Of a stretch of 32,000 nt of DNA, positions 13,417 through 29,366 are shown in pieces. Both the position numbers and the translations under genes were made by a program. Source of the stretch: Cupriavidus necator (lineage in GTDB: Bacteria > Pseudomonadota > Gammaproteobacteria > Burkholderiales > Burkholderiaceae); assembly GCF_016127575.1 (NCBI RefSeq), contig NZ_CP066018.1, forward strand, positions 90,001 through 122,000, read 5' to 3'. Under the pieces are notes generated by a model. That model saw only the letters and a list, made by a program, of their open reading frames with translations, had not been told where the DNA came from and did no database searches. Each line of letters opens with the position of its first letter. The first letter of the stretch is position 1.

Positions 13417-13654
13417 CGATCCTTCTTCGCCATGTTCGTAAATGTCCCATCGCGGATTGTAGCGGTCGCCGCGAGCATTCGGTATGCACTGCGTCACACA
13501 GACAGGCGACGCAGAAGCGCCCCGAAGGAAGATGAATCAGGCAGAGTCTCCGGCGAGGGGGCACCACCTGCGAACCCCACAATCTGGAATTTTCGAATGC
13601 AAAGCCCGGCTTATGATCGGCAGTACTCGCAGCACCTCATGCACAGATTAGAGA

Positions 13655-13759
13655 TTGACGCAGACAACCTTGTACCTGACCAGAGCCCTGCACCGCTCGC
13701 TGCAGCAACAGCCCGACCAAGTCGTCACCATCTTCCGCGGCCGGCACCGCACTTACGCG
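13655..13759 (+). pseudogene. 5' stub (about 35 codons) of an AMP-dependent acyl-CoA synthetase
   Basis: TTG-initiated frame gives (M)TQTTLYLTRALHRSLQQQPDQVVTIFRGRHRTYA, then nonsense (GRACR-stop at 13775-13777). This resembles the MxLTQxLHRxxQQxPD...RxTY N-terminus of many proteobacterial acyl-CoA ligases (from memory). Confidence 0.5.
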
Positions 13760-13832
13760 GGCCGGGCTTGCCGATGACAACGTCTTCGATGACGGACGGG
13801 GTCTTGGCCTCGTAGAGGACAGCAGCCTTCAT
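13755..13832 (-). pseudogene. 5' stub (about 26 codons) of a Zn-dependent alcohol dehydrogenase/MDR
   Basis: AAGGAGacaagg-ATG at 13832 gives MKAAVLYEAKTPSVIEDVVIGKPGPR, then KCGAGRGRW-stop (13725). This is the typical MDR/ADH N-terminus truncated before the Cys/His zinc ligands. It lies 33 nt downstream of the gntR stop. Confidence 0.6.
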
Positions 13833-13865
13833 CCTTGTCTCCTTCGCTGCGCCGGGATGCAGCCG

Positions 13866-14657
13866 TTACAGCTGCACCCGGCTGCGCTTGAGCTGGAACG
13901 CCACCGTCACCCGGTCCGCCGGATAGATCGTGTCGGTGATCTCAAGGATCCTGCCCTGCGCGTCCTTGTAATGGCGGATCAGCCGCAGGCCGGCCGAGCC
14001 CGGCTCGGCGCCCAACACCGCTGCCAGCCGCGCATCGATCAGCACGCCGTGAATCACCTGCCGGATCTCGGCAATGGCCACGCCGCAATCGCGCTCGATC
14101 AGCGCGCTGACCAATAGCCTGGGGTTGTTGCGGATGGTATCCGCCAGGTGCGCCAGCGAGGCGTCGATGTAGATGTCGGCGCGCGCCACCGGCGTGCTGC
14201 CCTTGCGCGCATCGACCCGCGTGCCGGAAAAACGCAGCCATTCGCTGCCAATCGGCGCCTCCAGCAGGCGGGCCTCGGCGCGGTCCAGCGTGACGCTGTG
14301 CACCGCCTCGATACTGCGGATCTCGGTGGCTGCCACCCGCACCAGGTCTTCTGCGGTGCCGAACGACTGGATGTACGACGCGTCCGGGTTGGCGCTCTCG
14401 ACGATGGTCCCCACCGCCTTCTTGCGCGAGATATAGCCCCAGTCCTGCAGCAGCTTGAGTGCCGCGCGCACGGTATGGCGGCTGACGCCATGCTGCTCGG
14501 CGAGATCATGCTCGGTCGGCAGCAGGCTGCCGACCACGCGGCGGCCCTCGACGATATCCCGGACCAGGGTGCTGGCCAGCTCGGCATAGCGGGTCGAGGC
14601 GGTCGCCCCCGGCGCCGCCGGTGCTTCCGCACGCTTGTCGTTCAGTTGGTTGCGCAT
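13866..14657 (-). CDS. GntR-family regulator, HutC/FarR subfamily (wHTH + UTRA domain)
   Basis: LPTEHDLAEQHGVSRHTVRAALKLLQDWGYISRKKAVGTIV is the GntR HTH. The C-terminal ~150 aa has UTRA-like length and pattern. Confidence 0.9.
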   Translation of the reverse strand: MRNQLNDKRAEAPAAPGATASTRYAELASTLVRDIVEGRRVVGSLLPTEHDLAEQHGVSRHTVRAALKLLQDWGYISRKKAVGTIVESANPDASYIQSFGTAEDLVRVAATEIRSIEAVHSVTLDRAEARLLEAPIGSEWLRFSGTRVDARKGSTPVARADIYIDASLAHLADTIRNNPRLLVSALIERDCGVAIAEIRQVIHGVLIDARLAAVLGAEPGSAGLRLIRHYKDAQGRILEITDTIYPADRVTVAFQLKRSRVQL

Positions 14658-14816
14658 GGCAATGAGATGTCCCGGGCCGATGCATGAAAAATGGGGCCGC
14701 GCATTCTAAGACAAGCGGCAGCGGCACCCGGAGCCGCGCCGCTCAGGCCTCGAAGAAGCGCCGGTCCGCTTCGGCCGGCACCGTCATGCTGGCGCAAGAC
14801 CTCGTCTCCCGCCGTG

Positions 14817-14834
14817 ACTATGTCCGTACATAGT
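14817..14834. promoter_or_regulatory. candidate GntR operator 1 (ACTATGTCCGTACATAGT)
   Basis: 18-nt inverted repeat (16/18 symmetric) containing the GT-N-AC core typical of GntR operators. It shares 15/18 positions with site 2. Confidence 0.5.
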
Positions 14835-14858
14835 GGAGGGCGGACCAAGCTATGTCAA
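14830..14858 (-). promoter_or_regulatory. candidate gntR promoter: TTGACA-N17-CACTAT (minus strand)
   Basis: The reverse complement of 14853-14858 is a perfect TTGACA, followed by a 17-nt spacer and then CACTAT (14835-14830), which is the first arm of operator 1. Confidence 0.4.
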
Positions 14859-14952
14859 TGATCGGAATATCCAGGAAATCTTGGCGGAAATTCACCCACC
14901 CGATACGGGTGGGCCGGCGCCTTGACTTGCCACCGAACCGCGCTGATCTCTT

Positions 14953-14970
14953 ACTATGTACGTACATAAA
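14953..14970. promoter_or_regulatory. candidate GntR operator 2 (ACTATGTACGTACATAAA; perfect 14-nt palindrome 14955-14968)
   Basis: TATGTACGTACATA is a perfect palindrome. A possible plus-strand promoter TTGCCA (14927-14932)-N19-TACTAT (14952-14957) overlaps it, about 250 nt upstream of the thiolase-like gene. Confidence 0.5.
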
Positions 14971-15006
14971 GCCGCATGCCGGACGTCGCAGGGATCGACC
15001 AAATGA

Positions 15007-15186
15007 GCGCAACGTGCAAAAGCTGACCGACGAACGGCCGGGCGCGTGTGCAATGCGCAGCAGGTGATCGACGCCATCGAGTCTTTCAGCAGGGTGCGCA
15101 CCAAGGAAGAGATCGCACAGTGCCTCGGCGGCAGGGTGCCGTTCGGCCCGGAAACCCCTGCAATATCCATGCGTAGCACCATTTGA
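15007..15186 (+). pseudogene. internal fragment of a family-III (CaiB/BaiF) CoA-transferase
   Basis: The open frame has no start codon: ...GRVCNAQQVIDAIESFSRVRTKEEIAQCLGGRVPFGPETPAISMRSTI-stop. The pattern RT.EE....L....VP.GP....SM matches the region preceding the C-terminal domain of CaiB-family enzymes (from memory). Confidence 0.55.
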
Positions 15187-15204
15187 CGCACCAGAGGAGA
15201 AAAG

Positions 15205-16371
15205 ATGAGCATCAAGGGCAAGGCCTATATCGTCGGGGCCTATGAGCACCCGACCCGCAAGGCACCGGACAAGTCGGTGGCGCAGCTGCACGCTGAAAGC
15301 GCCAAGGGCGCGCTGCAGGACGCTGGCCTGACGCTGGCCGACGTGGACGGCTACTTCTGCGCCGGCGACGCGCCGGGGCTGGGCGCGGTCAACATGGTCG
15401 ACTATCTCGGTCTCAAGGTGCGCCATGTCGACTCCACCGACACCGGCGGCTCCGCCTACCTGGTCCATGTCTCGCATGCGGCGCAGGCCATCGCGGCCGG
15501 CAAGTGCAACGTGGCCCTGATCACGCTGGCGGGGCGCCCGCGCTCGGAAGGCTCCAGCGGCACGCAGGCGCGCAACTGGGGCGCCAACCTGCCCGACGCG
15601 CCGTTCGAGAGCCCCTTCAGCCCGGTCACAGTCAACCTGTACGCGATGGCGGCCATGCGCCATATGCACGAGTACGGTACCACTGCCGAGCAGTTCGCCT
15701 GGGTCAAGGTGGCCGCGTCGCACCACGCGCAGCACAACCCCCATGCCATGCTGCGCGACGTGGTCACGGTCGAAGACGTGCTGAACTCGCCGATGATTTC
15801 CGATCCGCTGCACAAGCTCGACTGCTGCGTGGTATCGGACGGCGGCGGCGCACTGATCGTGGCGCGCCCGGAAATCGCCGCCACGCTGAAACGGCCCAAG
15901 GTGAAGATCCGCGGCGCCGGCGAGTACATCAAGGGCCAGCTCGGTGGCGAAGTCGACCTGAGCTGGTCCGGCGCGCGCTTCTCGGGCGCGACGGCATTTT
16001 CCGAGGCGGGCGTCACGCCGGCCGACATCAAGTACGCGTCGATCTACGACAGCTTCACCATCACCGTGCTGATGCAGCTGGAAGACCTGGGCTTCTGCAA
16101 GAAAGGCGAAGGCGGCAGGTTCGTCGCCGACGGCAACCTGATCTCGGGCGTCGGCAAGCTGCCCTTCAACACCGACGGCGGCGGCCTGTGCAACAACCAC
16201 CCGGCCAACCGCGGCGGCATCACCAAGGTCATCGAGGCCGTGCGCCAGCTGCGCGGCGAAGCCCACCCGGCGGTGCAGGTCGCCAACTGCGACCTGGCGC
16301 TGGCGCAAGGCACCGGCGGCTACCTGGGCTCGCGCCACGGCAGCGCCACCCTGATCCTTGAACGTGAATAA
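15205..16371 (+). CDS. thiolase-fold protein lacking the catalytic cysteines (SCP-x/Ltp-like, putative DUF35-dependent lyase)
   Basis: 388 aa, GAGGAG RBS. Thiolase-like throughout, but HVDSTDTGGSA replaces the N..NCATGS nucleophile motif and YDSF replaces HDCF. Followed immediately by the DUF35 gene. Confidence 0.9.
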   Translation: MSIKGKAYIVGAYEHPTRKAPDKSVAQLHAESAKGALQDAGLTLADVDGYFCAGDAPGLGAVNMVDYLGLKVRHVDSTDTGGSAYLVHVSHAAQAIAAGKCNVALITLAGRPRSEGSSGTQARNWGANLPDAPFESPFSPVTVNLYAMAAMRHMHEYGTTAEQFAWVKVAASHHAQHNPHAMLRDVVTVEDVLNSPMISDPLHKLDCCVVSDGGGALIVARPEIAATLKRPKVKIRGAGEYIKGQLGGEVDLSWSGARFSGATAFSEAGVTPADIKYASIYDSFTITVLMQLEDLGFCKKGEGGRFVADGNLISGVGKLPFNTDGGGLCNNHPANRGGITKVIEAVRQLRGEAHPAVQVANCDLALAQGTGGYLGSRHGSATLILERE

Positions 16372-16388
16372 TGCGCGGGAGCAATGAC

Positions 16389-16787
16389 ATGACGACCCCA
16401 CATACCCCCTTTGCCTACAAGGCACCGGACGAGCAGCCCGACAACCTTCCCTTCTGGCAGGCCGCGCGCGAAGGGCAATTGCTGGTCAAGGTCTGCGACG
16501 ACTGCGGCAAGCCTCACTGGTATCCGCGCGTGCTGTGCCCGTTCTGCATGGGCACCACCTCATGGAAGCCAGCCAGCGGCCGCGGCACCATCTACAGCTT
16601 CAGCGTGACGCGCCGCGCCGGCCCCAATCCGTTCTGCATCGCCTACGTGAAGCTGGACGAAGGCGTGACCATGATGACCCATATCGTCGACTGCGACCTC
16701 GACACGGTGCGGATCGGACAGAAGGTACAGGTGAAGTTCTCGCCCAGCGATGGCGGCGCACCGGTACCGACGTTCACGCTGGCCTGA
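16389..16787 (+). CDS. DUF35 Zn-ribbon/OB-fold protein (thiolase partner)
   Basis: CDDCGKPHWYPRVLCPFC rubredoxin-like ribbon followed by an OB-fold region (GTIYSFSV...IAYVKLDEGVTMMTHIV). The ATG at 16389 lies 7 nt after GGGAG; an alternative ATG at 16371 overlaps the upstream TAA. Confidence 0.85.
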   Translation: MTTPHTPFAYKAPDEQPDNLPFWQAAREGQLLVKVCDDCGKPHWYPRVLCPFCMGTTSWKPASGRGTIYSFSVTRRAGPNPFCIAYVKLDEGVTMMTHIVDCDLDTVRIGQKVQVKFSPSDGGAPVPTFTLA

Positions 16788-16834
16788 GGCCGGCTGCTGG
16801 ATGGGCGATACCGCGCTCTGACGGCAACTGCAAC

Positions 16835-18592
16835 ATGACAGTAAAGACAACCATGACCCACAACTATCTGCCCGATGCAGGCGTCACCGCCGTCCCCGCG
16901 GGTCCGCTTGCGGTGGACGCCGCAGTGGCGCTCGGCGACGTGCCGCGCGTCTTCCATATGCCGCACACCACCCTGGCGGAGAACCTTGAGATCTCGGCCC
17001 GGCGCTTCCCCGACAAGGTCGCGGTCCAGTTCTACCACGGCGCCACCACCTATGCCGAACTGCTGGCGCAGGTGGAGCGCATGGCCGGCTACCTGCAGCA
17101 GGCATGCGGCGTGCGCCGCGGCGACCGCGTGGTGCTGCTCAGCCAGAACAGCCCGCAGTTCATCGTGGCCTACCACGCGATCCTGCGCGCCGATGCCGTG
17201 GTGGTGCCGGCCAACGCCATGCTGCTGGAAGACGAGCTGCGCCATATCGTCACCGACAGCGGCGCGGTGGCCGCGTTTGCCGCAAGCGAGCTGGTCGGCC
17301 AGGTGGCGCCGCTGGTCGGCACCACGCCGCTGCGCCACGTGATCGTGCATCACTATGGCGATGCCCTGCCCGCGCAGCCCGACGACGGACTCTCGATTCC
17401 GGACTGGGTGCAGCAGCGCTCGTCCGGCACGGCGTTGCCGGCCGGCGCGGTCCACTGGCAGCAGGCCATGGCCGCCGGCTCCACGCCATCGCCGCGCTCC
17501 GCAGGCCTGGACGACCTGTGCATGCTGCCCTACACCTCGGGCACCACCGGGGCGCCCAAGGCCTGCATGCACACGCACCGCACGGTGATGGTGTCGGTGG
17601 CGGGCTCGCAGCTGTGGCGGCGCTCGCACGCCGAATCGACCTTCCTGGCAGTGGCGCCGATGTTCCACCTGCTCGGGCTGCAGAACGGCGTCAACGCGCC
17701 GGTCTACATGGGCGGCACCATCGTGCTGCTGCCGCGCTGGGACCGGCGCACCGTGGCGCAGCTGGTGGCGCGCCATCGCGTCACGTTCTGGGCTGCGCCG
17801 CCGCCGATGCTGGTGGAGTTCTTCGCGCAGCCAGGTATCGAGTCATTCGACCTGAGCAGCCTGGCCTGCGTGGTCGGGGGCGGCGCGGCGGTGCCCGACA
17901 GTACCGCGCGGCTGATGAAGGAGCGCTACGGACTGCAGTTTGTCGAAGGCTACGGCCTGACCGAGACTGCCTCGTTCATCATCGCCAACCCGCTTGCCGC
18001 AGCGCGCTCCGGGCACCTGGGCGTGCCGACCTACGGCGTCGATGCGCGCGTCATCGATCCCGCCACGCTGACCGAAGTGCCGCGCGGCGAGGTCGGCGAG
18101 ATCGTGGTGCACGGCGCGCAGGTGATGCTGGGCTACTGGAACCAGCCCGCGGCCAATGCCGAGAGCTTTATCACGATCGACGGCAAGCGCTTCTTCCGTA
18201 CCGGCGACCTTGCCAGCGTCGATGCCGACGGCTACTTCGTCATGCGCGACCGCCTCAAGCGCATGGTCAACGCCTCGGGCTACAAGGTGTGGCCGGCCGA
18301 GGTGGAAGCGATCCTGCATACCCACCCTGCCATCCTGGAAGCCTGCGTGATCGCCGCGCGCGATCCGCACCGGGGCGAGACCGTGAAGGCGGTGATCGTG
18401 CGGCGTGACGGCGCCGGCGTTTCCGAGGAAGAGTTGCTGGCGTGGTGCCGCACCAGCATGGCGACCTACAAGGCGCCGCGCATCGTGCAGTTTGTCGAAC
18501 GCCTGCCGCGCTCCGCCACCGGCAAGATCGCGTGGCGCGAACTGCAGGAGCAGGAGATGCAGGGAGCTCCGTTGCCGAACCACAAGGCCTAG
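16835..18592 (+). CDS. AMP-dependent acyl-CoA synthetase/ligase
   Basis: LPYTSGTTGAPKACMHTH (AMP-binding P-loop), YGLTET, TGDLASVDADGYFVMRDRLKRMV, PRSATGKI. Start chosen at ATG 16835 (alternative 16853); the 16535 track start overlaps DUF35. Confidence 0.9.
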   Translation: MTVKTTMTHNYLPDAGVTAVPAGPLAVDAAVALGDVPRVFHMPHTTLAENLEISARRFPDKVAVQFYHGATTYAELLAQVERMAGYLQQACGVRRGDRVVLLSQNSPQFIVAYHAILRADAVVVPANAMLLEDELRHIVTDSGAVAAFAASELVGQVAPLVGTTPLRHVIVHHYGDALPAQPDDGLSIPDWVQQRSSGTALPAGAVHWQQAMAAGSTPSPRSAGLDDLCMLPYTSGTTGAPKACMHTHRTVMVSVAGSQLWRRSHAESTFLAVAPMFHLLGLQNGVNAPVYMGGTIVLLPRWDRRTVAQLVARHRVTFWAAPPPMLVEFFAQPGIESFDLSSLACVVGGGAAVPDSTARLMKERYGLQFVEGYGLTETASFIIANPLAAARSGHLGVPTYGVDARVIDPATLTEVPRGEVGEIVVHGAQVMLGYWNQPAANAESFITIDGKRFFRTGDLASVDADGYFVMRDRLKRMVNASGYKVWPAEVEAILHTHPAILEACVIAARDPHRGETVKAVIVRRDGAGVSEEELLAWCRTSMATYKAPRIVQFVERLPRSATGKIAWRELQEQEMQGAPLPNHKA

Positions 18593-18815
18593 TGTCCTGC
18601 TCCGCAGACAAAACGGCGCGCCGAGCTTCGTCGAAGTCGCGGGCGTGGTGCAGCCGGCACCGGCGCCGCGATTCCTCGGCACGCCTTCCGAGATCTCCGG
18701 CCCCGCGCCGGCGCGCGGCGAGCATGGCGCCGCCGCGCTGCGCGACTGGGGCTTCGATGCCGATGGCGTGGCACAGCTGCAGGCACAGGGCCTGGGACTG
18801 ATGGCAGAGCGCTAA
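18585..18815 (+). pseudogene. C-terminal fragment of a family-III (CaiB/BaiF, racemase-like) CoA-transferase
   Basis: RPSVLLRRQNGAPSFVEVAGVVQPAPAPRFLGTPSEISGPAPARGEHGAAALRDWGFDADGVAQLQAQGL...stop. The FVEV..G..QPAPAPRF..TP....PAP..GEH signature is the typical C-terminus of this family. There is no start codon, and the frame begins on top of the ligase stop codon. Confidence 0.7.
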
Positions 18816-18863
18816 GGCGCACACGCGCGGCAGGCGCCGCGCCGCACAACTCAATGTCCACCT

Positions 18864-18890
18864 GGCCGGCATCGTCCGGCCGCGTGTTTT
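18864..18890 (+). terminator. intrinsic terminator candidate T1
   Basis: GGCCGG-catcgt-CCGGCC followed by GCGTGTTTT. Confidence 0.45.
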
Positions 18891-18920
18891 GCTCCGGCCC
18901 CGAGCCGGAGCATTCTTTTC
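18891..18920 (+). terminator. intrinsic terminator candidate T2
   Basis: GCTCCGGC-cccga-GCCGGAGC (8-bp stem) followed by ATTCTTTTC. Confidence 0.6.
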
Positions 18921-19069
18921 ATGGCTGCCCCGCTGCGTGGCACCGCCACCCAGGGCAATCCCGCCCAGCCGATATGGGGGGCATGCAAGGTGCCGGGCAT
19001 CCTATAACTTCCCACATGCAGCCCTTCTTGCTGCGCAGTCTCCTACCCCCCTTCCCGAGGTATCACATC

Positions 19070-20038
19070 ATGCGCATGAAGTCCCTGATCGCGATGGCAG
19101 CGATGGCGTGGAGCGCCGCCTGCGGTGCCCAGAGCTACCCGTCGCGTCCCATCACCGTTGTTGTCCCGGGCCCGCCCGGCGGCGCCACCGACACCGTGGC
19201 GCGCGCACTGGCCGAGGACATGGGCAAGCGTCTCGGGCAAACCATCATCGTCGACAACAAGCCCGGCGGCGCGGGCGTGATCGCGGTGCAGGCCATCACG
19301 CGCAGCGCGCCGGACGGCTACACCATCCTGCTCACCCACTCCTCGCCGCTGATCAACACGCCGCACCTGTACCGCAACGTGCCGTATGACGTGCGCCGGG
19401 ACCTGGCCTTTGTCACCGAACTCTGCATCGCCAAGATCGTGCTGGCCGTGAACCGGGACGTGCCGGTAAAGAACGTGCAGCAGTTCCTCGACTGGGCCGC
19501 GAAGAACAAGGGCAAGGTCAGCTACGGCTCCTATGGCGTCGGCACCTTCCCGCACCTTGTCGGCGCGCACCTGAACCAGGTGCGCGGCCTGGACATGGCG
19601 CATGTGGCCTACAAGGGTGAAGCGCCAATGGCGCAGGACATGATCGCCGGCAATATCGCCTGGGCGATCGGCTCGATGAGCACGCTCGGCCCGCATATCA
19701 AGAGCGGCCGGCTTACCGCCCTCGCCGTGATGGGCGACAAGCGCATCAAGGAGCTGCCCGACGTACCGACCATGGCCGAGGCCGGGCTGAAGGAGCAGGA
19801 ACTGCGCTCGCCCGCCTGGCTTGGCCTGTTCGCGCGCTCCGGCACGCCGGCGGCGGTGCTGTCGCGGCTGGAAGCGGAAGCGCGGGCGTCGGTCCAGTCG
19901 CCGACCATGCGCGCGCGGCTCGAGGCACTGGCCATGGATCCGGTGGGCAACTCGCCGGCGGAGTTCCGGCGCGAATTCGACGCGACCGAGCCCGTGGTCG
20001 CCCAGATGATCAAGGCCAGCGGCGCCACCGCGGAATAA
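19070..20038 (+). CDS. Bug-family (TctC-like) tripartite tricarboxylate transporter substrate-binding protein
   Basis: Signal peptide MRMKSLIAMAAMAWSAACGAQ, then SYPSRPITVVVPGPPGGATDTVAR...NKPGGAGVIA, the hallmark Bug N-terminus. GAGG lies 9 nt upstream of ATG 19070. No tctA/tctB genes in the window. Confidence 0.9.
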   Translation: MRMKSLIAMAAMAWSAACGAQSYPSRPITVVVPGPPGGATDTVARALAEDMGKRLGQTIIVDNKPGGAGVIAVQAITRSAPDGYTILLTHSSPLINTPHLYRNVPYDVRRDLAFVTELCIAKIVLAVNRDVPVKNVQQFLDWAAKNKGKVSYGSYGVGTFPHLVGAHLNQVRGLDMAHVAYKGEAPMAQDMIAGNIAWAIGSMSTLGPHIKSGRLTALAVMGDKRIKELPDVPTMAEAGLKEQELRSPAWLGLFARSGTPAAVLSRLEAEARASVQSPTMRARLEALAMDPVGNSPAEFRREFDATEPVVAQMIKASGATAE

Positions 20039-20290
20039 GGCAAGCGCGCAGCCGGGTGGCCAGTGCGGTCAGCCCGGCCGCTGCAACGCGCTGCGCGGCC
20101 ACCAGGATCGCATCGTAGCGGCGCGACACATTGAGCTTGGCGTAGATCTGCCGCAGGTTCCACTTGACGGTGTCGACGCTCAGGTTGAGCACCAGCGCAA
20201 TGCGCTTGTTCGACATCGACTGCTCAAGCAGCGCGAGGATCTCGCGCTCGCGCCCGCCCCCATCGGCAACCTCGTCCGGATCGGGCGGGG
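20010..20290 (-). pseudogene. stranded LuxR-type HTH domain (3' relic of a MalT-like regulator)
   Basis: The minus-strand frame is open from 20414 to 20010 and reads ...GGGREREILALLEQSMSNKRIALVLNLSVDTVKWNLRQIYAKLNVSRRYDAILVAAQR... There is no ATG, GTG or TTG upstream of the Met inside the HTH (20216). The 3' end overlaps the Bug gene by 29 nt. Confidence 0.6.
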
Positions 20291-20566
20291 TTGGCTCCAG
20301 GAACAGGCCACGCGCGCACCACTGGCCGGCAGATATAAGGCGACGCCTTGTGACCGGGCACCCGGCAAACCCTCCCCCACCTGTTGCTGATGGCCTGCGG
20401 GTGCTGCGCGCGTCTCACCCGGGCCACGCGGACAGCCGGCCAGGCGTGGCTTGGCCGCCGCGCCGCGTCTGCCAGTACAATCGCGACAACGTGCCGCCTT
20501 TGCCCGGCATCGCGCTGCCCCACCCGCATTTCCTCCGCATCTCACCTGCACCGTCCTGCCTCGCCC

Positions 20567-23410
20567 ATGCCCCAGACGCCAGCCAATCCGCCAGCCGCCC
20601 CCCGCAGCCAGCCCGCCGCGCCAGTCTCGCAGCCGTCCCGGCCGGCGTCGCTGCGCAGCGCGGCGCGCGTGGTCGCGCGCGAGCGCCTGCTGGTGCAGTT
20701 GACCGAGGCACGGCGCCGGCGCTGCATCGTGCTGCAGGGCCCGGCCGGCTACGGCAAGACCGCGCTGCTGACCGCGTGGCGGCTGGACCTGCTCGCGCTC
20801 GGCTTCGACATGGCCGCGCTGACGCTGGAGCCGGCCGACAACGAGCGCCAGCGCTGGCTCGACCGCCTGCTCGGCTGCCTGTCCGAGGTCAGCCCCGCGC
20901 TGACGCGCGAAGCCATGGTCCTGGCCGACCGCGGCACCGACGACGAAGCCGTCGAGCGCGCCATCATCGCGCTGGTGCGCGGCATTGCCGCCCACCAGCG
21001 CGACGTGACCCTGGTGCTCGACGACGTGCACCACCTGACGGCGCGCGTGCTGGAGCCGCTGCAGTGGCTGCTCGACTATGCCCCGGCCAATTTCCATGTG
21101 GTGCTGGCCTCGCGCGTGGCGCTGCCGCTGTCGCTCGGGCGCCTGCGCGACCAGGGCATGCTGCTGGAGCTGGACCAGCGCGACCTGCGCTTCACGCTGG
21201 CTGAATCGCAGCATTTCCTGCGCGCCCAGCTGGGCGACATCAGCCCGCGCGATGCGCGCATGCTGCACGAGCTGACCGACGGCTGGGTGGCCGGCCTGCA
21301 GCTCTTTGCCGCGCACTGGAAGCGCAAGAAGGCCAACGCCAGCGGCCTCACCTTTGCCACCGGCTTCGTGCAGGCCAGCGTGCAGGATGCCGGCGCCTTC
21401 GCAGAATATTTCGAACGCGAGGTGCTGTCGCGCCTGGCGCCGGACGAAGCCGAGCTGCTGGTGCGCGCCGCCGCGTGCGAACGCTTTACCGCGTCGCTGT
21501 GCGAGGCCCTGGGCGAGCAGGCGCTGGGCGAAGGCGAGATCCTGGCGCTGCTGGCGCGGCTGGAACAGGAGAACCTCTTCATCACCCCGGCGCAGGGCCC
21601 CGAGCGCGAATCCTGGTACCGGTTGCATCCGCTGCTGCGCGAAACCCTGGCCCAGCGCTTCCGCTCGCGCAGCGATGCCCAGCAGCGCGCCGTGCACGCG
21701 GCGGCCTGGCGCTGGTTCCGCGACCATCGCATGCTGGAAGAGGCCGTGCGCCATGCGGTGCTGGCCGGCGACGCCGACACCGCCGCCGACCTGGTGCAGC
21801 GCTATGCCGACACCCTGATCATTCGCGGCGAGGTGCGCAAGGCGCTCGGGCTGCTGCGCGCCATCCCCGCCTACCAGGTGCAGGCGCGCCCCGAACTGCG
21901 CCTGCTGGCACTGCGCACGCAGATGTTCTCGCGCGAGCTGGACGCGTGCGCCGCGGCCGCGGACCGGCTCGAGGCCGACATCCCGCCGGGCGACGCCTCG
22001 CTGCGCTACCGGCTCGCGCTGCTGCGCTTTTCCCTGGTGCTGCTGCAAGACGACAGCCAGGGCGCGCTGGCGCTGCTGCCGCAGATCGAGAACGTGCCCG
22101 CCGACATGCCGGCGCTGTTTATCGGCTCGCGCAACAACCTGCTGTCGTGGCTCTACATGCACCTGGGCGACTACGAGCGCGCCCGCCGCATCCAGACCGA
22201 GGCAGCGCCGCTGGTGATCGACGGCGTGCCGCTGCTGGGCACCGCCAGCGGCATGCTCAACGGGCGCTGCATGATCGGCTTCAGCCATGCGCTGGAAGGC
22301 AACATGATCCAGGCCGAGCGCGTCGCCCGCGACGTGCTGCGCGAAGTCGAGCAAGCGGGCCACGGCGGCGCCGAGCCGGAGTACTTTGCCGCGGCCCTGC
22401 TGGGCGAGGCGCTGTACGAGCAGAACGACCTGGAGGCTGCACGCCGGCTGCTGGAGGACCGCGTCGACGTGCTCGAGCGGGTCTCGATCCCGGACTCGGT
22501 GCTGCGGGTGCACACCGTGCTGGCAGCCGCGCACTGGATCTGTGGCCACCGGCTCGATGCCTTCGTGCAACTGGAGCGGCTGGAAGACTACGGCACCCAA
22601 CTGCGCCTGGACCGGCTGGTCGCGCAGAGCCTGGCCAACCAGATCCGGCTGCACCTGGCCAGCGGCGACATTGCCGCCGCCGAGGCCGCGCTGGCGCGCC
22701 TGGATGCCATTGCCGCACGCCATCGCAACGCGCCGCGCGGCTCGCTGGACGCCATCCACATGGTGACCGAGCGCGCCCACCTGCTGCTCAGCCTGGCGCA
22801 TGACGACATGCGCGGGGCCGAGGCCCGCACCGCAGCGCTGATCGCGTACTGCGAGGCGCGCGGCTGGCAACGCCACGTGGCGCAGATGCACATGCTGGCG
22901 GCCGTGGTGGCATCGCGCCGCGGCGACGCCGAGGCGGCACGCACGCATGTGCTGGAAGGCTTGCGCCGCGGCCACCGGCTCGGGCTGATGCGCAGCGTGA
23001 TCGATGCCTGCCCCGGCGCGCTCGGCCAGATCGTGCGCGTGGCCGCGGACACCACGCTGGACCCGGTGCTGGCCTTCTATGTCGAACGCCTGCAGGCCAC
23101 CGTGCCGCCGCGCGCCGCGCAAGCCGGCGCGGCGGGCGGCACCGCCGCGGCTGCCGCGCCCGCCGGCAGCCCGGCCCGGGCCGACGCGCGCCTCGAGGAA
23201 CTGAGCGACCGCGAAGCCGATGTCGTGCGCCTGCTCGGCCAGGCCCTGCCCAACAAGAAGATTGCGCGCACCCTGGGCCTGTCGCCGGAGACGGTGAAAT
23301 GGCACTTGCGCAACATCTTCCGCAAGCTGGGCGTGAGCAGCCGCGACGAGGCCGTGGCGCGCGTCCGCGACCGCGAGCTGGACCAGGCGCCGCCTGACGC
23401 GCCGCACTGA
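20567..23410 (+). CDS. MalT-like STAND NTPase / LuxR-family transcriptional activator
   Basis: 947 aa: Walker [13 protein letters not shown], Walker [10 protein letters not shown], a long helical/TPR-like sensor region, and a C-terminal LuxR HTH ([45 protein letters not shown]). Start set at ATG 20567 (MPQTPANPP...). Confidence 0.85.
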
Positions 23411-23447
23411 CGGCGCAACCGCCCCCTCTCCCTCCCCCCTCCCCAAC

Positions 23448-23477
23448 GCCGCGCAACCCATGCGCGGCCGCCCCTTT
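23448..23477 (+). terminator. weak terminator candidate after the MalT-like gene
   Basis: GCCGCGCA-accca-TGCGCGGC (8-bp stem) followed by CGCCCCTTTG. The U-tract is poor. Confidence 0.35.
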
Positions 23478-23517
23478 GCTGTCTCCGGCCACCTGACGCG
23501 GGTGGTGTTCGCGGCCC

Positions 23518-23527
23518 CCTCCTCCCC
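23518..23527 (-). promoter_or_regulatory. MalT-box-like decamer GGGGAGGAGG
   Basis: The reverse complement of CCTCCTCCCC fits the E. coli MalT box consensus GGGGA(T/G)GAGG. It lies 77 nt upstream of the ACAD ATG. Related C-tracts occur at 23422-23444. Confidence 0.3.
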
Positions 23528-23603
23528 GGTACCTTAGCGCCATACCAACGGCCGCATTGCTGGGCTGAGGCAACCTTCCGCAGACCGACATCCGGAGTAC
23601 TCA

Positions 23604-24743
23604 ATGGAAATCAACCGCAGCATCTATCGTGACGACCACGAGATGTTCCGCACCACCGTGCGCCGCTTCCTCGAACGCGAATGCCTGCCCAGGCAAGCCG
23701 AATGGGACAAGGCCGGCAAGGTCGACCGCGAGACCTGGCTCAAGGCCGGCCGCGAAGGCCTGCTGTGCGTGACGCTGCCGACCGAGTACGGCGGCGGCGG
23801 CGGCGACTTCGGCCACTCCGCCATCTATGCCGAAGAGTATGCCCGCGCCGGCCTGAGCGGGGTCGGCTTCGGCGTGCACTCCGACATCATCGCGCCGTAT
23901 ATCGCCCGCATCGGCAACGAGGAACAGAAGCAGCGCTGGCTTCCCAAGGTCTGCTCCGGCGAATACATCCTCGCCATCGGCATGACCGAGCCCGGCACCG
24001 GCAGCGACCTCAAGGCGATCCGCACCACTGCCACCCGCGATGGCGACGAGTACGTGATCAACGGCAGCAAGACCTTCATCAGCAACGGCCTGAACGCCGA
24101 CCTGATCATCATGGTCTGCAAGACCGACCCGACCGCCGGCGCGCGCGGCGTCAGCCTGATCGTGGTCGAAGCCGAGCGCGAGGGCTTCCGCCGCGGCCGC
24201 AAGCTGGACAAGGTCGGCCAGCACGCGCAGGACACCGCCGAGCTGTTCTTCGACAACGTGCGCGTGCCGGTGGCCAACCTGCTGGGCGAGGAAGGCAAGG
24301 GCTTTGCCTACCTGATGGCCGAACTGCCGCAGGAGCGCCTGTCGATCGCGGTCAGCGCCGCCGCCAAGCTGGAGGTCTGCCTGGAACACACGCTGGCCTA
24401 CGTCAAGGACCGCAAGGCCTTCAGCCAGACCGTCTGGGACTTCCAGAACACCAAGTTCAAGCTGGCCGACATCAAGACGCAGGCGATCTCGGTGCGGCTG
24501 CTGGTCGACCACTACCTCGGCGAGCACATCCGCCGCCGCCTGACGCTGGAAGAAGCGGCCATCGCCAAGCTCCATGCGACCGAAGTTCTGGGCACCGCGC
24601 TGGACCAGATGGTGCAGCTGCACGGCGGCTACGGCTACATGATGGAGTACCCGGTGGCGCGCGCCTTTGCCGACATGCGCGTGACCCGCATCTACGGCGG
24701 CACCAGCGAAGTGATGCGCGATCTGATCGCGCGCAAGCTGTAA
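23604..24743 (+). CDS. acyl-CoA dehydrogenase (LCAD/IVD-like architecture)
   Basis: 379 aa; GMTEPGTGSDL, YVINGSKTFISNG, the C-terminal YGGTSEVMRDLIAR has Gly where MCAD has its catalytic Glu, and Glu is present in AELPQERL. GGAG RBS. Confidence 0.95.
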   Translation: MEINRSIYRDDHEMFRTTVRRFLERECLPRQAEWDKAGKVDRETWLKAGREGLLCVTLPTEYGGGGGDFGHSAIYAEEYARAGLSGVGFGVHSDIIAPYIARIGNEEQKQRWLPKVCSGEYILAIGMTEPGTGSDLKAIRTTATRDGDEYVINGSKTFISNGLNADLIIMVCKTDPTAGARGVSLIVVEAEREGFRRGRKLDKVGQHAQDTAELFFDNVRVPVANLLGEEGKGFAYLMAELPQERLSIAVSAAAKLEVCLEHTLAYVKDRKAFSQTVWDFQNTKFKLADIKTQAISVRLLVDHYLGEHIRRRLTLEEAAIAKLHATEVLGTALDQMVQLHGGYGYMMEYPVARAFADMRVTRIYGGTSEVMRDLIARKL

Positions 24744-24781
24744 GCACTGACCCCAAGACAAACAATCATCGGAGCACACCT

Positions 24782-25969
24782 ATGACTCGCAAGGTTTTCG
24801 TCGCCGGCGCCGGCATGATCCCGTTCAAGAAGCCGGGCAGCAGCGACACCTATGACGTGATGGGCGCAACCGCCGTGCGCCAGGCGCTGGAAGACGCCGG
24901 CCTTGGCTATGAGGACGTGCAGCAGGCCTACGCCGGCTACGTGTATGGCGACTCGACCTGCGGCCAGAAGGCGCTGTACCAGGTCGGCATGACCGGCATC
25001 CCCGTCATCAACGTGAACAACAACTGCGCCACCGGCTCGTCGGCGCTGTTCCTGGCGCGCCAGGCGGTGCAGAGCGGCGCGGTGGACTGCGCGCTCGCGG
25101 TCGGCTTCGAGTTCATGCAGCCCGGCGCGCTGAAGTCGCGCTGGGACGACCGCGCCCCGGCGCTTGAGCGCGCCATCGGCCTGGTGGACGAACTGGTCGA
25201 CCGCAAGGACCTGCCCAATGCCATCCGCCAGTTCTCCGGCGCCGGCAAGGCCCATATGGAAAAGTACGGCACCAGGCTGGAAACCTTCGCCAGGATCCGC
25301 GCCAAGGCCAGCCGCCACGCCGCCAACAACCCGCTGGCCGTATTCCGCAACGTGCTGACCACCGAGGACGTGCTGGCCGCGCCGGCGCTGTGGGAAGGCG
25401 TGCTCACGCGCCTGATGGCCTGCCCGCCAACCTGCGGCGCCGCTGCCGCCATCGTGGTGTCGGAGGAATTCGCGCGCAGGAAGGGCCTGAAGACCGACGT
25501 GCTGATCGCCGGCCAGTCGCTGACCACCGACCGCCCCAGCACCTACGACGCACGCGACATGATCCGCGTGGTCGGCTTCGGCATGACGCGCGAAGGCTCG
25601 CAGCAGGTGTATGAGCAGGCCGGCGTCGGCCCGCAGGACCTCGACGTGATCGAGCTGCACGACTGCTTCGCGCAGAACGAGCTGCTGACCTATGAAGGCC
25701 TCGGCCTGTGCCCGGAAGGCGGCGCCGAGAAGCTGGTCAACGACGGCGACAACACCTACGGCGGCAAGTGGGTGGTCAACCCGTCAGGCGGCCTGCTGTC
25801 CAAGGGCCATCCGCTGGGCGCCACCGGCCTGGCGCAATGCTACGAGATGGTCCAGCAGCTGCGCGGCACCGCCGACCAGCGACAGGTGGAAGGCGCACGC
25901 CTGGCCCTGACGCACAACCTCGGCCTGGGCGGCGCCTGCGTGGTCACGCTGTACCAGAAGCACGCCTGA
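24782..25969 (+). CDS. SCP-x-type (lipid-transfer-protein-like) 3-ketoacyl-CoA thiolase
   Basis: NVNNNCATGSSAL (nucleophile Cys), HDCF loop, GHPLGATG, GLGGAC. GGAG RBS upstream of ATG 24782. Confidence 0.9.
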   Translation: MTRKVFVAGAGMIPFKKPGSSDTYDVMGATAVRQALEDAGLGYEDVQQAYAGYVYGDSTCGQKALYQVGMTGIPVINVNNNCATGSSALFLARQAVQSGAVDCALAVGFEFMQPGALKSRWDDRAPALERAIGLVDELVDRKDLPNAIRQFSGAGKAHMEKYGTRLETFARIRAKASRHAANNPLAVFRNVLTTEDVLAAPALWEGVLTRLMACPPTCGAAAAIVVSEEFARRKGLKTDVLIAGQSLTTDRPSTYDARDMIRVVGFGMTREGSQQVYEQAGVGPQDLDVIELHDCFAQNELLTYEGLGLCPEGGAEKLVNDGDNTYGGKWVVNPSGGLLSKGHPLGATGLAQCYEMVQQLRGTADQRQVEGARLALTHNLGLGGACVVTLYQKHA

Positions 25970-25993
25970 GCACACTGACACAGGAGTCCATCC

Positions 25994-26431
25994 ATGATCG
26001 ACAAGAAACACATCGGCAAGGTGGTGGCGGATTTCCGCGCCTGCGCACCGGCCAGCCAGCTGCGCTTCTTCGCCAAGGCCACCGGCCAGACCGATCCGGT
26101 CTATCTCGACGAAGCCGCCGCGCGCGACGCCGGCCACCCGGGCCTGCCGTTGCCGCCGACCTTCCTCTTTTCGCTGGAACTGGCCGGGCCGGCGACCGGC
26201 TGGCGAGATGAGCTGGGCATCCGCATCGACCGCATCCTGCACGGCGAGCAATCCTTTGCCTACCACCGCATGGCCTACGCCGGCGACACCCTGCACTTCA
26301 AGTCCACCATCGCCGACATCTACGACAAGAAGGGCGGCGCGCTGGAATTCGTAGTGCGCGAGACGCGCGTGACCAACCAGGATGGCGAGCACGTGGCAGA
26401 CCTGCGCAGCGTGCTGGTGCATCGCACTTGA
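25994..26431 (+). CDS. MaoC_dehydrat_N-type hot-dog protein (non-catalytic hydratase subunit)
   Basis: 145 aa; FAKATGQTDPVYLDEAAARDAGHPGLPLPPTF, typical of the N-terminal half or partner of two-subunit (R)-specific enoyl-CoA hydratases (HadA/ChsH1-like). Confidence 0.85.
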   Translation: MIDKKHIGKVVADFRACAPASQLRFFAKATGQTDPVYLDEAAARDAGHPGLPLPPTFLFSLELAGPATGWRDELGIRIDRILHGEQSFAYHRMAYAGDTLHFKSTIADIYDKKGGALEFVVRETRVTNQDGEHVADLRSVLVHRT

Positions 26432-26445
26432 ACCGGAGAACCCGC

Positions 26446-26862
26446 ATGAGCAAACTAGGCTTCGACCAGGTCAAGGTAGGCGACACCCTGCCGCCGCTGA
26501 CGCTGGAGCCGGTCAACCGCACCACGCTGGCGCTGTTCGCCGGCGCGTCGAACGACCACAACCCGATCCACATCGACATCGATTTCGCACGCAAGGCCGG
26601 CAACCCCGACGTGTTTGCCCACGGCATGCTGGCGATGGCCTGGCTGGGCCGCTTGCTGACGCAGTGGGTGGACCAGCGCCAGCTGCGCCAGTTCGGCGTG
26701 CGCTTTGTCGGCATCACCCACCTGGGCCATCGCATCACCTGCACCGGCCGCGTGGTGGAGAAGCTGGAAGTCGACGGCGAGAAGCGCGTCAGGCTGGAAA
26801 TCCAGACCGCCAACCAGTATGGCGAAAGCAAGATCCTCGGCGACGCCGTCGTTGCCCTGTAA
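26446..26862 (+). CDS. MaoC-family (R)-specific enoyl-CoA hydratase, catalytic subunit
   Basis: FAGASNDHNPIHIDIDFARKAG (catalytic Asp/His motif). GGAG lies 8 nt upstream of ATG 26446; the TTG at 26428 is rejected. Confidence 0.9.
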   Translation: MSKLGFDQVKVGDTLPPLTLEPVNRTTLALFAGASNDHNPIHIDIDFARKAGNPDVFAHGMLAMAWLGRLLTQWVDQRQLRQFGVRFVGITHLGHRITCTGRVVEKLEVDGEKRVRLEIQTANQYGESKILGDAVVAL

Positions 26863-26888
26863 ATCCAATCAAGCACAAGGAGTCTGAA

Positions 26889-27713
26889 ATGGGAGCACTT
26901 GAAGGCAAGGTGGCACTGGTCACCGGTTCGGGCCGCGGCATCGGCAACGCCATCGCCATGCGGCTGGCACGCGAAGGCGCGCGCCTGGTCATCAATGACC
27001 TGGACGCCGAGCCGGCGCAACAGACCGTCGAGGAACTGAAGGCAATGGGCGTCGAAGCCGTGGCCTGCGTGGGCAACGTGTCCGCACCGGACTTTGCCGA
27101 CCGCTTCATCAACACGGCGATGAGCAATTTCAAGAGCATCGACATCATCGTCAACAACGCCGGCTTCACCTGGGACGACGTGGTGCAGAAGATGAGCGAC
27201 GAGCAGTGGTACGCCATCCTGGACTGCCACATGACCGCGCCGTTCCGCATCCTGCGCGCCGCCTACCCGCACATCAAGGCACTGGCCGCCGCCGACAAGG
27301 AAGCCGGCCGCGAGGTGTACCGCAAGATCGTCAATATCTCGTCGACCTCGGGCCTGAACGGCAATGCCGGCCAGATCAACTACTCCGGCGCCAAGGCCGG
27401 CGTGATCGGCATGACCCGCGCCATGGCGCGCGAGTGGGGCCGCTTCAACGTCAACGTGAATGCGGTGGCGTTTGGGCTGATCCACACCCGCATGACCTCG
27501 GCCGACGCCAAGGCCGGCGCCACGGTCAACATCGAAGGCCGTGAAATCCGCGTCGGGCTGAATCCGGAGATGCTGAAGTCGCACGCCCAGCGCAATCCGC
27601 TTGGCCGCGGGGGCACCCCGGAAGAAGCCGCGGGCGGCGTGTACCTGTTCTGCTCGCCGGATTCCAACTACATCACCGGCCAGGTGATCGCGGTCGCCGG
27701 CAACGTGCAGTAA
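26889..27713 (+). CDS. short-chain dehydrogenase/reductase (3-hydroxyacyl-CoA dehydrogenase / FabG-like)
   Basis: TGSGRGIG cofactor motif, NNAG, and S...YSGAK catalytic triad context. AAGGAG RBS. Confidence 0.9.
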   Translation: MGALEGKVALVTGSGRGIGNAIAMRLAREGARLVINDLDAEPAQQTVEELKAMGVEAVACVGNVSAPDFADRFINTAMSNFKSIDIIVNNAGFTWDDVVQKMSDEQWYAILDCHMTAPFRILRAAYPHIKALAAADKEAGREVYRKIVNISSTSGLNGNAGQINYSGAKAGVIGMTRAMAREWGRFNVNVNAVAFGLIHTRMTSADAKAGATVNIEGREIRVGLNPEMLKSHAQRNPLGRGGTPEEAAGGVYLFCSPDSNYITGQVIAVAGNVQ

Positions 27714-27730
27714 ATCCAGCCGCACCGAAG

Positions 27731-27756
27731 CGGGGGCTCGCGTTGGCGAGCCCCCG
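27731..27756. terminator. GC-rich hairpin between convergent SDR and pirin genes
   Basis: CGGGGGCTCGC-gttg-GCGAGCCCCCG (11-bp stem). Flanking U-tracts are weak on both strands. Confidence 0.45.
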
Positions 27757-27772
27757 TTGCTGCAGCAGGCGC

Positions 27773-28648
27773 CTACCGGCCGCCCGCCGCGATGCTGCCG
27801 AAATGACCGCTGCTGAAGTCGCGGAAGGCATCGGCAATCTGCTCTTCAGTGTTCATCACGAACGGGCCATGGCCGACGATCGGCTCGTCGATCGGCTCGC
27901 CGCTGAGCAGCAGCACCACCGCGTCGGTGCTGGCTTCGATGTTCACATCCTCGCCGGCACCGTCCAGCACCACCATCTCGGCATCCCGCACCGTCGCCTC
28001 CGCGTTGACGGTGATCTTGCCGCGCAGCACCACCAGCGCGGTATGCCAGCCCTCCGGCAGCGCCAGCCGCGCGCTGGCACCCTGGTTCAGGCGCATATCC
28101 CACACATGCATCGGCGTGAAGGTGCGCGCCGGGCCGGCCTTGCCCGCGTACTCGCCGGCGATCACGCGCACCGTGCCGGCGCCATCGGGCATCGGCACCA
28201 CCGGGATATCGCGGTCGACGATGGCCTGGTAGCCGGGCGTGGTCATCTTGTCGCGCGCCGGCAGGTTGACCCACAGCTGCACCATTTCCAGCGCGCCGCC
28301 GCTTTGCGTAAAGGCCGGCGAGTGGAATTCCTCATGCAGGATGCCGGCGCCCGCCGTCATCCACTGCACGTCGCCGGGGCCGATCACGCCGCCCTGCCCG
28401 GTCGAGTCGCGATGCGCGACCTCGCCCTTGTAGACGATGGTCACGGTCTCGAAACCGCGGTGCGGATGCTGGCCAACCCCGCGCGGGCGCTGCGTCGGCG
28501 TGAAGTCGGCCGGCCCGGCATAGTCCAAAAGCAGAAACGGGCTCAGTTGCTTGCCGTGGCTCATGTACGAAAACATCGAGCGCACCGGAAAGCCATCTCC
28601 GACCCAGTGCTGACGCGGTGCGCTGTAGACGCCCAGAATGCGCTTCAT
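27773..28648 (-). CDS. pirin-family bicupin protein
   Basis: GFPVRSMFS...DYAGP...HPHRGFETVTIVYKGEVAHRDS.G..G.IGPGDVQWMTAGAGILHEE, the canonical pirin metal site. Start at ATG 28648 (GGAG upstream), not the 29041 track start. Confidence 0.9.
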   Translation of the reverse strand: MKRILGVYSAPRQHWVGDGFPVRSMFSYMSHGKQLSPFLLLDYAGPADFTPTQRPRGVGQHPHRGFETVTIVYKGEVAHRDSTGQGGVIGPGDVQWMTAGAGILHEEFHSPAFTQSGGALEMVQLWVNLPARDKMTTPGYQAIVDRDIPVVPMPDGAGTVRVIAGEYAGKAGPARTFTPMHVWDMRLNQGASARLALPEGWHTALVVLRGKITVNAEATVRDAEMVVLDGAGEDVNIEASTDAVVLLLSGEPIDEPIVGHGPFVMNTEEQIADAFRDFSSGHFGSIAAGGR

Positions 28649-28787
28649 GTCTGATCTCCGAGTATGCCGACCGATAGCGGCAGGCAATGATCCATGGAGC
28701 AATGATAGGAGCTGCAGCCGGCGCGCGGTAGACCGTGGGATTGCAATGCAGTGTCCTGTGGCTGGAACGATGCCCGGCCGCCGTCCG

Positions 28788-29366
28788 TCAGAAGCGGTAG
28801 CGCACGTAGCCCATGCTGAAGTTGGTGCCGGGATTGGGCTGCCTGATGCCGGCATTGGACAGGTGCTGGAAGCGGTAGCCGATGGCAAGCCGCTGCGCCT
28901 TGCCGAAGGCAATGCCCACGCCGACCATGTCAGAGAACTGGAACGCCGAGCCCATGCGATGGCCGTCGGCGATCTCGGTATGGCTGAGCACGCGCAAACC
29001 CACGGAGGCTTCAACAAACGGCGTCGCGTACTCGCCCGCATAGCTGAGGCGGAAGATCGGTGACACGCCGAACTCCGTCAGCTGGCTCGACGGCCGGGAC
29101 GACAGCGCCCGCCAGTTTGCGAGATTGACCTCGCCGTCCAGGGACAGCGCAAGGCGGCTTGACAGCTGCCACTGCACGATATCGTCCCAGCGCGCGGCCA
29201 CTTCGTATTTTTCAACGCCGTGGCGGTTGTCGCGGCCATAGCCGCCCTGCATCGAGAAGGTTGCCGCGTCGGCGGCGGCCGGAAGCGCGCACAGGCAGGC
29301 CGCAAACGGAACGGCGGCAGCAAGGTGCGCCAGCCGGCTTGATGGGGTTGCTATCTTCACTGACAT
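28788..29366 (-). CDS. PagL-like lipid A 3-O-deacylase / acyloxyacyl hydrolase (outer-membrane beta-barrel)
   Basis: Signal peptide ending ALPAAADA, alternating beta-strand pattern, FQHLSNAG (His-x-Ser-Asn catalytic motif of PagL) and a C-terminal YRF. Confidence 0.75.
   Translation of the reverse strand: MSVKIATPSSRLAHLAAAVPFAACLCALPAAADAATFSMQGGYGRDNRHGVEKYEVAARWDDIVQWQLSSRLALSLDGEVNLANWRALSSRPSSQLTEFGVSPIFRLSYAGEYATPFVEASVGLRVLSHTEIADGHRMGSAFQFSDMVGVGIAFGKAQRLAIGYRFQHLSNAGIRQPNPGTNFSMGYVRYRF

Follow-up and report, generated by a model that had tools for sequence, protein, structure and literature searches.

A cysteine-less thiolase-fold protein paired with a DUF35 zinc-ribbon protein in Cupriavidus necator, a candidate 3-hydroxyacyl-CoA lyase

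Results

A Thiolase-Fold Protein without Catalytic Cysteines

The window analyzed here is a 32,000-nucleotide stretch of Cupriavidus necator DNA (positions 90001-122000 on the largest of the three replicons of a 7.42-Mb genome; GC content of the window 66%–72%). We focus on two adjacent genes within it, one encoding a thiolase-fold protein and the other a DUF35 protein, which a first-pass annotation made from the sequence alone had read as a candidate C-C lyase.

15205..16371, + strand: Cys-less SCP2-thiolase-fold protein of 388 aa, NCBIfam PRK08142, with G81-G82 at the nucleophile position, Y281-D282-S283-F284, and H332 in NNHPANRGG
16389..16787, + strand: stand-alone DUF35 protein, zinc ribbon plus oligonucleotide/oligosaccharide-binding (OB) fold (from Pfam, start-codon inspection and paralog comparison)

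The translation of 15205-16371 contains the motifs HVDSTDTGGSA, YDSF (residues 281-284) and NNHPANRGG, and the SCPx-type thiolase encoded at 24782-25969 in the same window contains NVNNNCATGSS, HDCF and GHPLGATG, with both cysteines intact; these motifs and the DUF35 ribbon are all present in the translations as originally quoted. Pfam recognizes Thiolase_C_1 in the 15205-16371 protein, and a hidden Markov model (HMM) search assigns it to NCBIfam NF006010 / PRK08142 with 780.4 bits over positions 1-388 of 388 (curated cut-off 462 bits), the runner-up family, PRK06158, scoring 367 bits, below its own cut-off. The NCBIfam entry for PRK08142 reads thiolase domain-containing protein, with function unassigned.

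Both catalytic cysteines of thiolases are lost, as the first-pass annotation had claimed. Residues 72-86 contain no cysteine, and the nucleophile is thus absent under any alignment. The nucleophilic cysteine of the SCPx thiolase falls opposite D79 by BLASTP and opposite G82 by MAFFT, and in HMMER alignments G82 lies opposite Gly89 of CtSal, a Comamonas testosteroni retro-aldolase in which this glycine is the residue at the thiolase Cys position (PMC12329534). The AlphaFold2 (AF2) model (pLDDT 93.4) has G81 as the first residue of the helix whose N-terminal residue in thiolases is the nucleophile. The alignment with CtSal Gly89 and the helix start together indicate that the nucleophile is replaced by glycine (G81-G82), and not by the Asp/Thr proposed at first. 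S283 lies opposite the Cys of HDCF by both BLASTP and MAFFT, and the His of the thiolase GHP motif is kept as H332, the only member of the canonical SCP2/SCPx thiolase residue set that the protein retains. Judged by its residues, the 15205-16371 product cannot be a canonical thiolase.

These features are widely conserved. A homolog search of 1.84 billion cluster representatives returned 10,968 matches to the protein at E ≤ 0.001 and 1,058 at E ≤ 1e-30. GG occupies the nucleophile position in nearly all of a divergent set of 88 full-length representatives (35%–73% identity), in which Tyr281 is conserved in 82, Asp282 in 87 and His332 in 65, and position 283 is variable (Ser in 29, Cys in 22, Ala in 20). 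The PRK08142 clade itself, sampled as 80 sequences from 80 species, shows 71%–98% identity across phyla, its hosts being beta-, alpha- and gammaproteobacteria, Methylomirabilota, Rokubacteria and also Neobacillus/Bacillus. Across these orthologs 89 of the 388 positions are invariant, including Y281, D282, S283, F284, N322, D324, N331 and H332, so that the YDSF and His features cannot be put down to chance. Proteins above the PRK08142 cut-off occur in 13 of 401 evenly drawn genomes of Pseudomonadota (∼3%), which together with the strong conservation identifies a patchy, strongly constrained accessory gene. The pair is present at Neobacillus/Bacillus loci (L025, L027 and L032) with 78%–80% protein identity to the Cupriavidus copy, and these Firmicutes copies point to transfer between phyla. 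Tandem thiolase-like copies were seen at two loci, with 73% and 69% identity to the 15205-16371 protein in one (L072, 8001-10728) and 34% and 76% in the other (L073, 5631-9559), where each copy has its own DUF35.

A real thiolase whose nucleophile lies away from the usual site, such as Cys208 or Cys329, would accord with the invariance of C208 and the retention of C329 in 77 of the 80 orthologs, and neighboring genes for short-chain dehydrogenases/reductases (SDRs) and MaoC proteins resemble the multifunctional enzyme type 2 (MFE-2)/SCPx β-oxidation set, which needs a thiolase. We nevertheless consider this very unlikely, since TcLtp2, whose aldolase activity is proven, also has the DCC motif that holds C208, most relatives (among them the structural-genomics protein 4U4E) have Ser in place of C329, the acid/base Cys of HDCF is also gone, and a full SCPx thiolase with both cysteines present is encoded in the same window.

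A DUF35 Partner in Nearly Every Sampled Species

The DUF35 gene lies directly 3′ of the thiolase-like gene, on the same strand, in 78 of the 80 species, and the contigs of the remaining two end there. Its product is a free-standing protein of 132–138 aa in which Pfam finds zf-ChsH2 plus OB_ChsH2_C and which carries the four-Cys ribbon CDDCGKPHWYPRVLCPFC (C42, C45, C56 and C59, numbered from start 16371). The longest open reading frame (ORF) begins at ATG 16371 within TAATG, which shares one base with the thiolase-like stop codon, in line with the abutting stop described previously; however, ATG 16389 is the likelier start, because GGGAG stands 8 nt upstream of it and the paralog ORF starts at the equivalent Met. 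All four zinc-binding cysteines are kept in 66 of 78 DUF35 partners, and their loss in the other 12 (CTST in 11, NTCD in 1) implies that zinc binding is dispensable for some pairs. The best Protein Data Bank (PDB) matches of the DUF35 protein are the DUF35 domains of Shy and ChsH2. From the linkage of the genes, the thiolase-like and DUF35 proteins are predicted to form a complex.

DUF35 serves as a scaffold in the thiolase/HMG-CoA synthase complex of archaea (PMC12329534), and the neighbors of the pair are widely variable. The thiolase-like protein might therefore be imagined as a catalytically dead scaffold or substrate-binding subunit that, with DUF35, organizes some other enzyme, for instance a ligase, hydratase or thiolase. 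This we hold to be extremely improbable, as the invariant positions include residues lining the ancestral active site, the level of identity across phyla indicates strong selection on more than a surface, and no single third partner is conserved.

Relation to the Steroid Side-Chain Retro-Aldolases

The best PDB matches to the thiolase-like protein by sequence are 4U4E (1e-89), CtSal (9MYR, 4e-56) and TcLtp2 (6OK1, 3e-46), with true thiolases after them. Foldseek with the AF2 model gives the same order and the SCP2-thiolase fold, with TM scores of at least 0.87 to 4U4E (0.87–0.94), 9MYR (0.91) and 6OK1 (0.87–0.91). Among characterized proteins, the two DUF35-bound retro-aldolases, Sal and Ltp2, come closest in both sequence and fold. 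The proposal of a C-C lyase in place of a thiolase is thus upheld in its negative half, and its positive half is a probable assignment drawn from this kinship.

Residues were mapped by counting through HMMER alignments, a procedure that is validated by its reproducing the published numbers (PMC12329534). Y281 corresponds to Tyr302 of CtSal and Tyr294 of TcLtp2, the catalytic bases of the two enzymes (PMC12329534), in exact alignment and in agreement with the suggestion that the Tyr of YDSF is a candidate catalytic residue. S283 corresponds to CtSal Cys304 and TcLtp2 His296, H332 to CtSal Gln352 and TcLtp2 Tyr344, and G327 to CtSal Gln347. The catalytic acid is Cys304 in CtSal and Tyr344 in TcLtp2 (PMC12329534). 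The idea that tyrosines are used as in Ltp2 is not borne out, the second Ltp2 Tyr (Tyr344) being replaced by His332 and the Sal acid Cys304 by Ser283. From these alignments, the protein would have the base common to both aldolases, with His332 as the obvious candidate acid.

CtSal-CtShy (the bile-acid C5 side-chain retro-aldolase of C. testosteroni; 9MYR, PMC12329534) shares with the query pair the SCP2-thiolase fold, the Gly at the nucleophile position, the Tyr of the YDxx motif, a proteobacterial origin and the association with a DUF35 zinc-ribbon/OB unit, and CtSal is the second-best PDB match by both comparisons. It differs in having Cys304, Gln347 and Gln352 where the query has Ser283, Gly327 and His332, and the DUF35 of CtShy is a C3H1 domain fused to a MaoC hydratase, whereas that of the query is separate and has four Cys. 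Unlike the CtSal system, the query pair has no steroid genes around it. TcLtp2-ChsH2 (the steroid C3 side-chain retro-aldolase; 6OK1) likewise has the fold, the loss of both cysteines, a DUF35 partner, a YDxF motif with the catalytic Tyr and an LDCC segment, but it has the acid Tyr344 and His296 in place of His332 and Ser283, is ∼34% identical, and its ChsH2 DUF35 is fused to a hydratase.

The closest solved structure, at 45% identity, is 4U4E, a putative thiolase of Sphaerobacter thermophilus from structural genomics, which has GG at the nucleophile position, YDSF, a THPG motif, and Ser at the position of Cys329. Its function is unassigned, and it therefore gives no functional transfer; our literature search found no publication on 4U4E, and the Sal paper nowhere mentions YDSF or 4U4E (PMC12329534). 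Known pairs of a thiolase-fold protein and a free-standing DUF35 with genes side by side resemble the query pair in layout, but in them the thiolase subunits still have their catalytic cysteines and catalyze thiolytic or Claisen reactions, and the similarity to the query is lower (1e-37 and 1e-28). TbSLP, the Trypanosoma brucei SCP2-thiolase-like protein (5AB4-7), is a further thiolase fold of unassigned function that lacks the nucleophile Cys; unlike the query, it keeps a Cys in YDCF, has no DUF35 partner and is far more distant (3e-22).

Maximum-likelihood analysis places the query clade (support 100) inside a 32-member clade (support 99) together with P0151, the proxy for 4U4E, which is itself of a PRK06158-like subfamily, and puts P0219, the proxy for Sal, in a separate clade (support 99). 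The phylogeny thereby resolves the query from the Sal proxy and groups it with the 4U4E proxy, in a tree that contains no true Ltp2 sequence.

Expression, Regulation and Synteny of the Locus

In this strain, the pair is expressed together with a third gene, behind a divergently transcribed regulator.

16835..18592, + strand: AMP-forming acyl-CoA ligase of PRK08314 type, 47 nt after the DUF35 stop codon; RNA of this strain covers it together with the pair
14923..14987, + strand: promoter region of the three-gene unit, TTGACT and then TACTAT, overlapped by the palindrome TATGTACGTACATA (14953-14970); hexamers read by eye
13866..14657, − strand: divergent GntR/UTRA (HutC-type) regulator (from Pfam, RNA-seq and sequence reading)

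Two stranded RNA-seq runs of this organism show continuous same-strand depth from ∼15017 to 18712 over the three genes (14–51 in one run, 22–119 in the other); depth is sustained across the DUF35-ligase junction and drops four- to ten-fold over the following TctC gene. RNA 5′ ends accumulate at ∼14978-14987, just past the palindrome TATGTACGTACATA; a consensus promoter scan found no promoter at this region. The continuous RNA and the 5′ ends after the palindrome show that the three genes behave here as one regulated unit. A second copy of the palindrome, at 14817-14834, lies beside the RNA 5′ ends of the GntR/UTRA gene (∼14804-14811), and the GntR/UTRA protein is likely the repressor of the three-gene unit.

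Some further features were seen along this transcript and near it. Open frames at 15007-15186 (+), which sits inside the 5′ untranslated region of the unit, and at 18396-18815 (+) flank the three genes and resemble, by eye, the middle and C-terminal pieces of a family III CoA-transferase/racemase; Pfam recognizes neither putative fragment, and this reading comes from inspection only. Two terminator-like hairpins (18863-18912) lie at the annotated start of the TctC ORF, just past the drop in RNA depth, and the TctC start codon may be further downstream than 18854. About 100 RNA reads per run match only the 35 nt at 13756-13790 (A>G at 13777) and continue to the left and right into unrelated sequence, which indicates that another, more highly expressed locus of the genome shares this stretch.

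In the closest relatives, C. neocaledonicus and C. nantongensis (L004 and L005), an IclR gene, the thiolase-like gene and the DUF35 gene are followed by a pirin gene, equivalent to 27773-29041 of the window, and there is no ligase. Relative to them, the window has two extra segments, 13482-15175, with the GntR regulator, and 16789-27772, with the ligase, TctC, MalT/LuxR, acyl-CoA dehydrogenase (ACAD), SCPx thiolase, two MaoC genes and an SDR; on the right, synteny ends at the DUF35 stop codon, and no mobile-element gene was seen. A fixed triad of pair and ligase was thus considered and rejected. The AMP-forming ligase is co-expressed with the pair in this strain, yet it is no conserved partner of it. 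The earlier proposal that the pair acts on the product of the adjacent ligase would hold only locally, with the co-expression here and the same layout in 2 of 24 other sampled Cupriavidus genomes in its favor; the closest relatives have no ligase there and an AMP-forming ligase occurs at few loci elsewhere (see below). Chromosome 2 of the same genome has another copy of the pair, at 89% and 81% identity (L001, 4553-8987; ∼386.5–391 kb), with a DUF2889 gene upstream, an unrelated 701-aa ADP-forming acyl-CoA synthetase downstream, and enoyl-CoA hydratase (ECH), nitronate monooxygenase (NMO)-like and ACAD genes nearby.

Gene Neighborhoods across Genomes

Neighbors were counted within 5 kb with a panel of gene families at the 46 loci that have 5 kb on both sides.

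SDR: 14/46 loci
TctC: 12/46 loci
ACAD: 12/46 loci
Class I CoA-transferase: 9/46 loci
ECH hydratase: 8/46 loci
MaoC hydratase: 8/46 loci
AMP-forming ligase: 6/46 loci
ADP-forming ligase: 4/46 loci
Any CoA-activating enzyme: 19/46 loci
No panel neighbor: 10/46 loci

A conserved third partner was rejected, the top neighbor family, SDR, reaching only 22 of the 80 loci; only 10 of the 80 have a MaoC gene within 5 kb. The CoA-activating enzymes that recur beside the pair across genomes are of three or four unrelated kinds and occur in operons such as MaoC, thiolase-like, DUF35 and ligase (L068 and L081), ADP-forming ligase, two MaoC genes, thiolase-like and DUF35 (L059), or thiolase-like, DUF35, ECH and ligase (L037, L044 and L061). 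The recurrent theme is CoA activation, hydration and the pair, in parallel with the hydratase and aldolase of the steroid systems. One Neobacillus operon (L025) contains two PTE-type (phosphotriesterase-family) hydrolases, an S15-type hydrolase, a metallo-β-lactamase-fold (MBL) hydrolase, CoA-transferase subunits and a GntR/UTRA regulator, which hints at lactone or ester substrates. With contexts this varied, the neighborhoods point to no single substrate.

Discussion

On balance, we favor as probable the reading of the pair as a retro-aldolase, a 3-hydroxyacyl-CoA lyase that depends on DUF35 and belongs to a separate, uncharacterized clade, with a probable Tyr281/His332 catalytic pair. The enzyme would be a heteromeric C-C lyase of the Ltp2/Sal kind, in which a thiolase-fold catalytic subunit is held by a DUF35 zinc-ribbon/OB subunit and binds a 3-hydroxyacyl-CoA. 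Tyr281 of YDSF would take the proton off the 3-hydroxyl, and cleavage between C2 and C3 would release a carbonyl product (aldehyde or ketone) and leave a short acyl-CoA, either acetyl- or propionyl-CoA, as its enolate. Protonation of this enolate would most likely fall to His332, the retained thiolase His, which stands where Ltp2 has its acid Tyr344. Ser283, the counterpart of Sal Cys304 and Ltp2 His296, would more likely polarize the thioester than serve as the acid. Locally, a carboxylic acid could be converted to the acyl-CoA by the ligase and then to the 3-hydroxyacyl-CoA by the products of the downstream ACAD and MaoC genes, unless the acid is already hydroxylated, before its cleavage by the pair.

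Several observations weigh against this assignment. Both known catalytic acids are missing from the protein, with Ser283 and His332 at those positions, and the C304S substitution inactivated CtSal (PMC12329534), so the chemistry may differ. The query DUF35 is a protein of its own, whereas both known systems have it fused to the hydratase. SDRs are the most frequent neighbors, and a 3-oxoacyl-CoA substrate would fit equally. No panel CoA-activating gene lies within 5 kb at 27 of the 46 loci, and ten of the 46 have no panel neighbor at all. No aldehyde dehydrogenase recurs among the gene clusters common to at least four loci, at a 35% identity threshold that divergent ones may escape. Our literature search (DUF35 lyase/aldolase, Cupriavidus, thiolase-like retro-aldol) found only the Sal/Ltp2 work and no study of the PRK08142 clade.

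The neighborhoods and the retained residues also bear on another kind of enzyme that forms an enolate without a nucleophile, either a decarboxylase of substituted malonyl-CoA/2-carboxyacyl-CoA or an enzyme of hydrolytic retro-Claisen cleavage of 3-oxoacyl-CoA. The thiolase His and the oxyanion-hole glycines are retained in the protein with the Cys lost, and ketosynthases with a Cys-to-Gln substitution act as decarboxylases. SDRs, as the commonest neighbors, would supply 3-oxo substrates, and TctC-type carboxylate-binding proteins are often nearby. For the Cys-less TbSLP, weak malonyl-CoA decarboxylase activity was reported, but at a very low rate, and CtSal did not decarboxylate malonyl-CoA (PMC12329534). 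Furthermore, the invariant Tyr at the position of the catalytic base of both aldolases would have no obvious role in a decarboxylase, and hydratase, thiolase-like and DUF35 genes occur in operons without a dehydrogenase (L068). We therefore regard an enzyme of this kind as unlikely.

Within the retro-aldolase reading, we put forward more tentatively, as a possibility that is itself doubtful, that PRK08142/DUF35 adds a third catalytic strategy to the two known for thiolase-fold lyases, one in which a Tyr281/His332 pair re-uses the ancestral thiolase His as the acid. The two genes would then be a portable module, plugged by different bacteria into unrelated acyl-CoA pathways, that acts on a small 3-hydroxyacyl-CoA other than a steroid, for instance one whose 3-hydroxyl is tertiary or cannot be oxidized for some other reason. 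Such a portable module would explain the 71%–98% cross-phylum identity, the occurrence in ∼3% of the sampled Pseudomonadota and the changing neighbors.

Thousands of such database entries are named acetyl-CoA acetyltransferase or lipid-transfer protein, though they are incapable of thiolysis, and studies of the Cys-less branch cover just two members, both of them steroid-specific. Once shown, the function of PRK08142/DUF35 would correct a large block of annotation, and it may add a new residue set to thiolase-fold aldolase chemistry as well as a catalyst for forming or breaking C-C bonds in CoA esters. Cupriavidus necator is genetically tractable and carries two near-identical copies of the pair, which makes the question directly testable in this organism.

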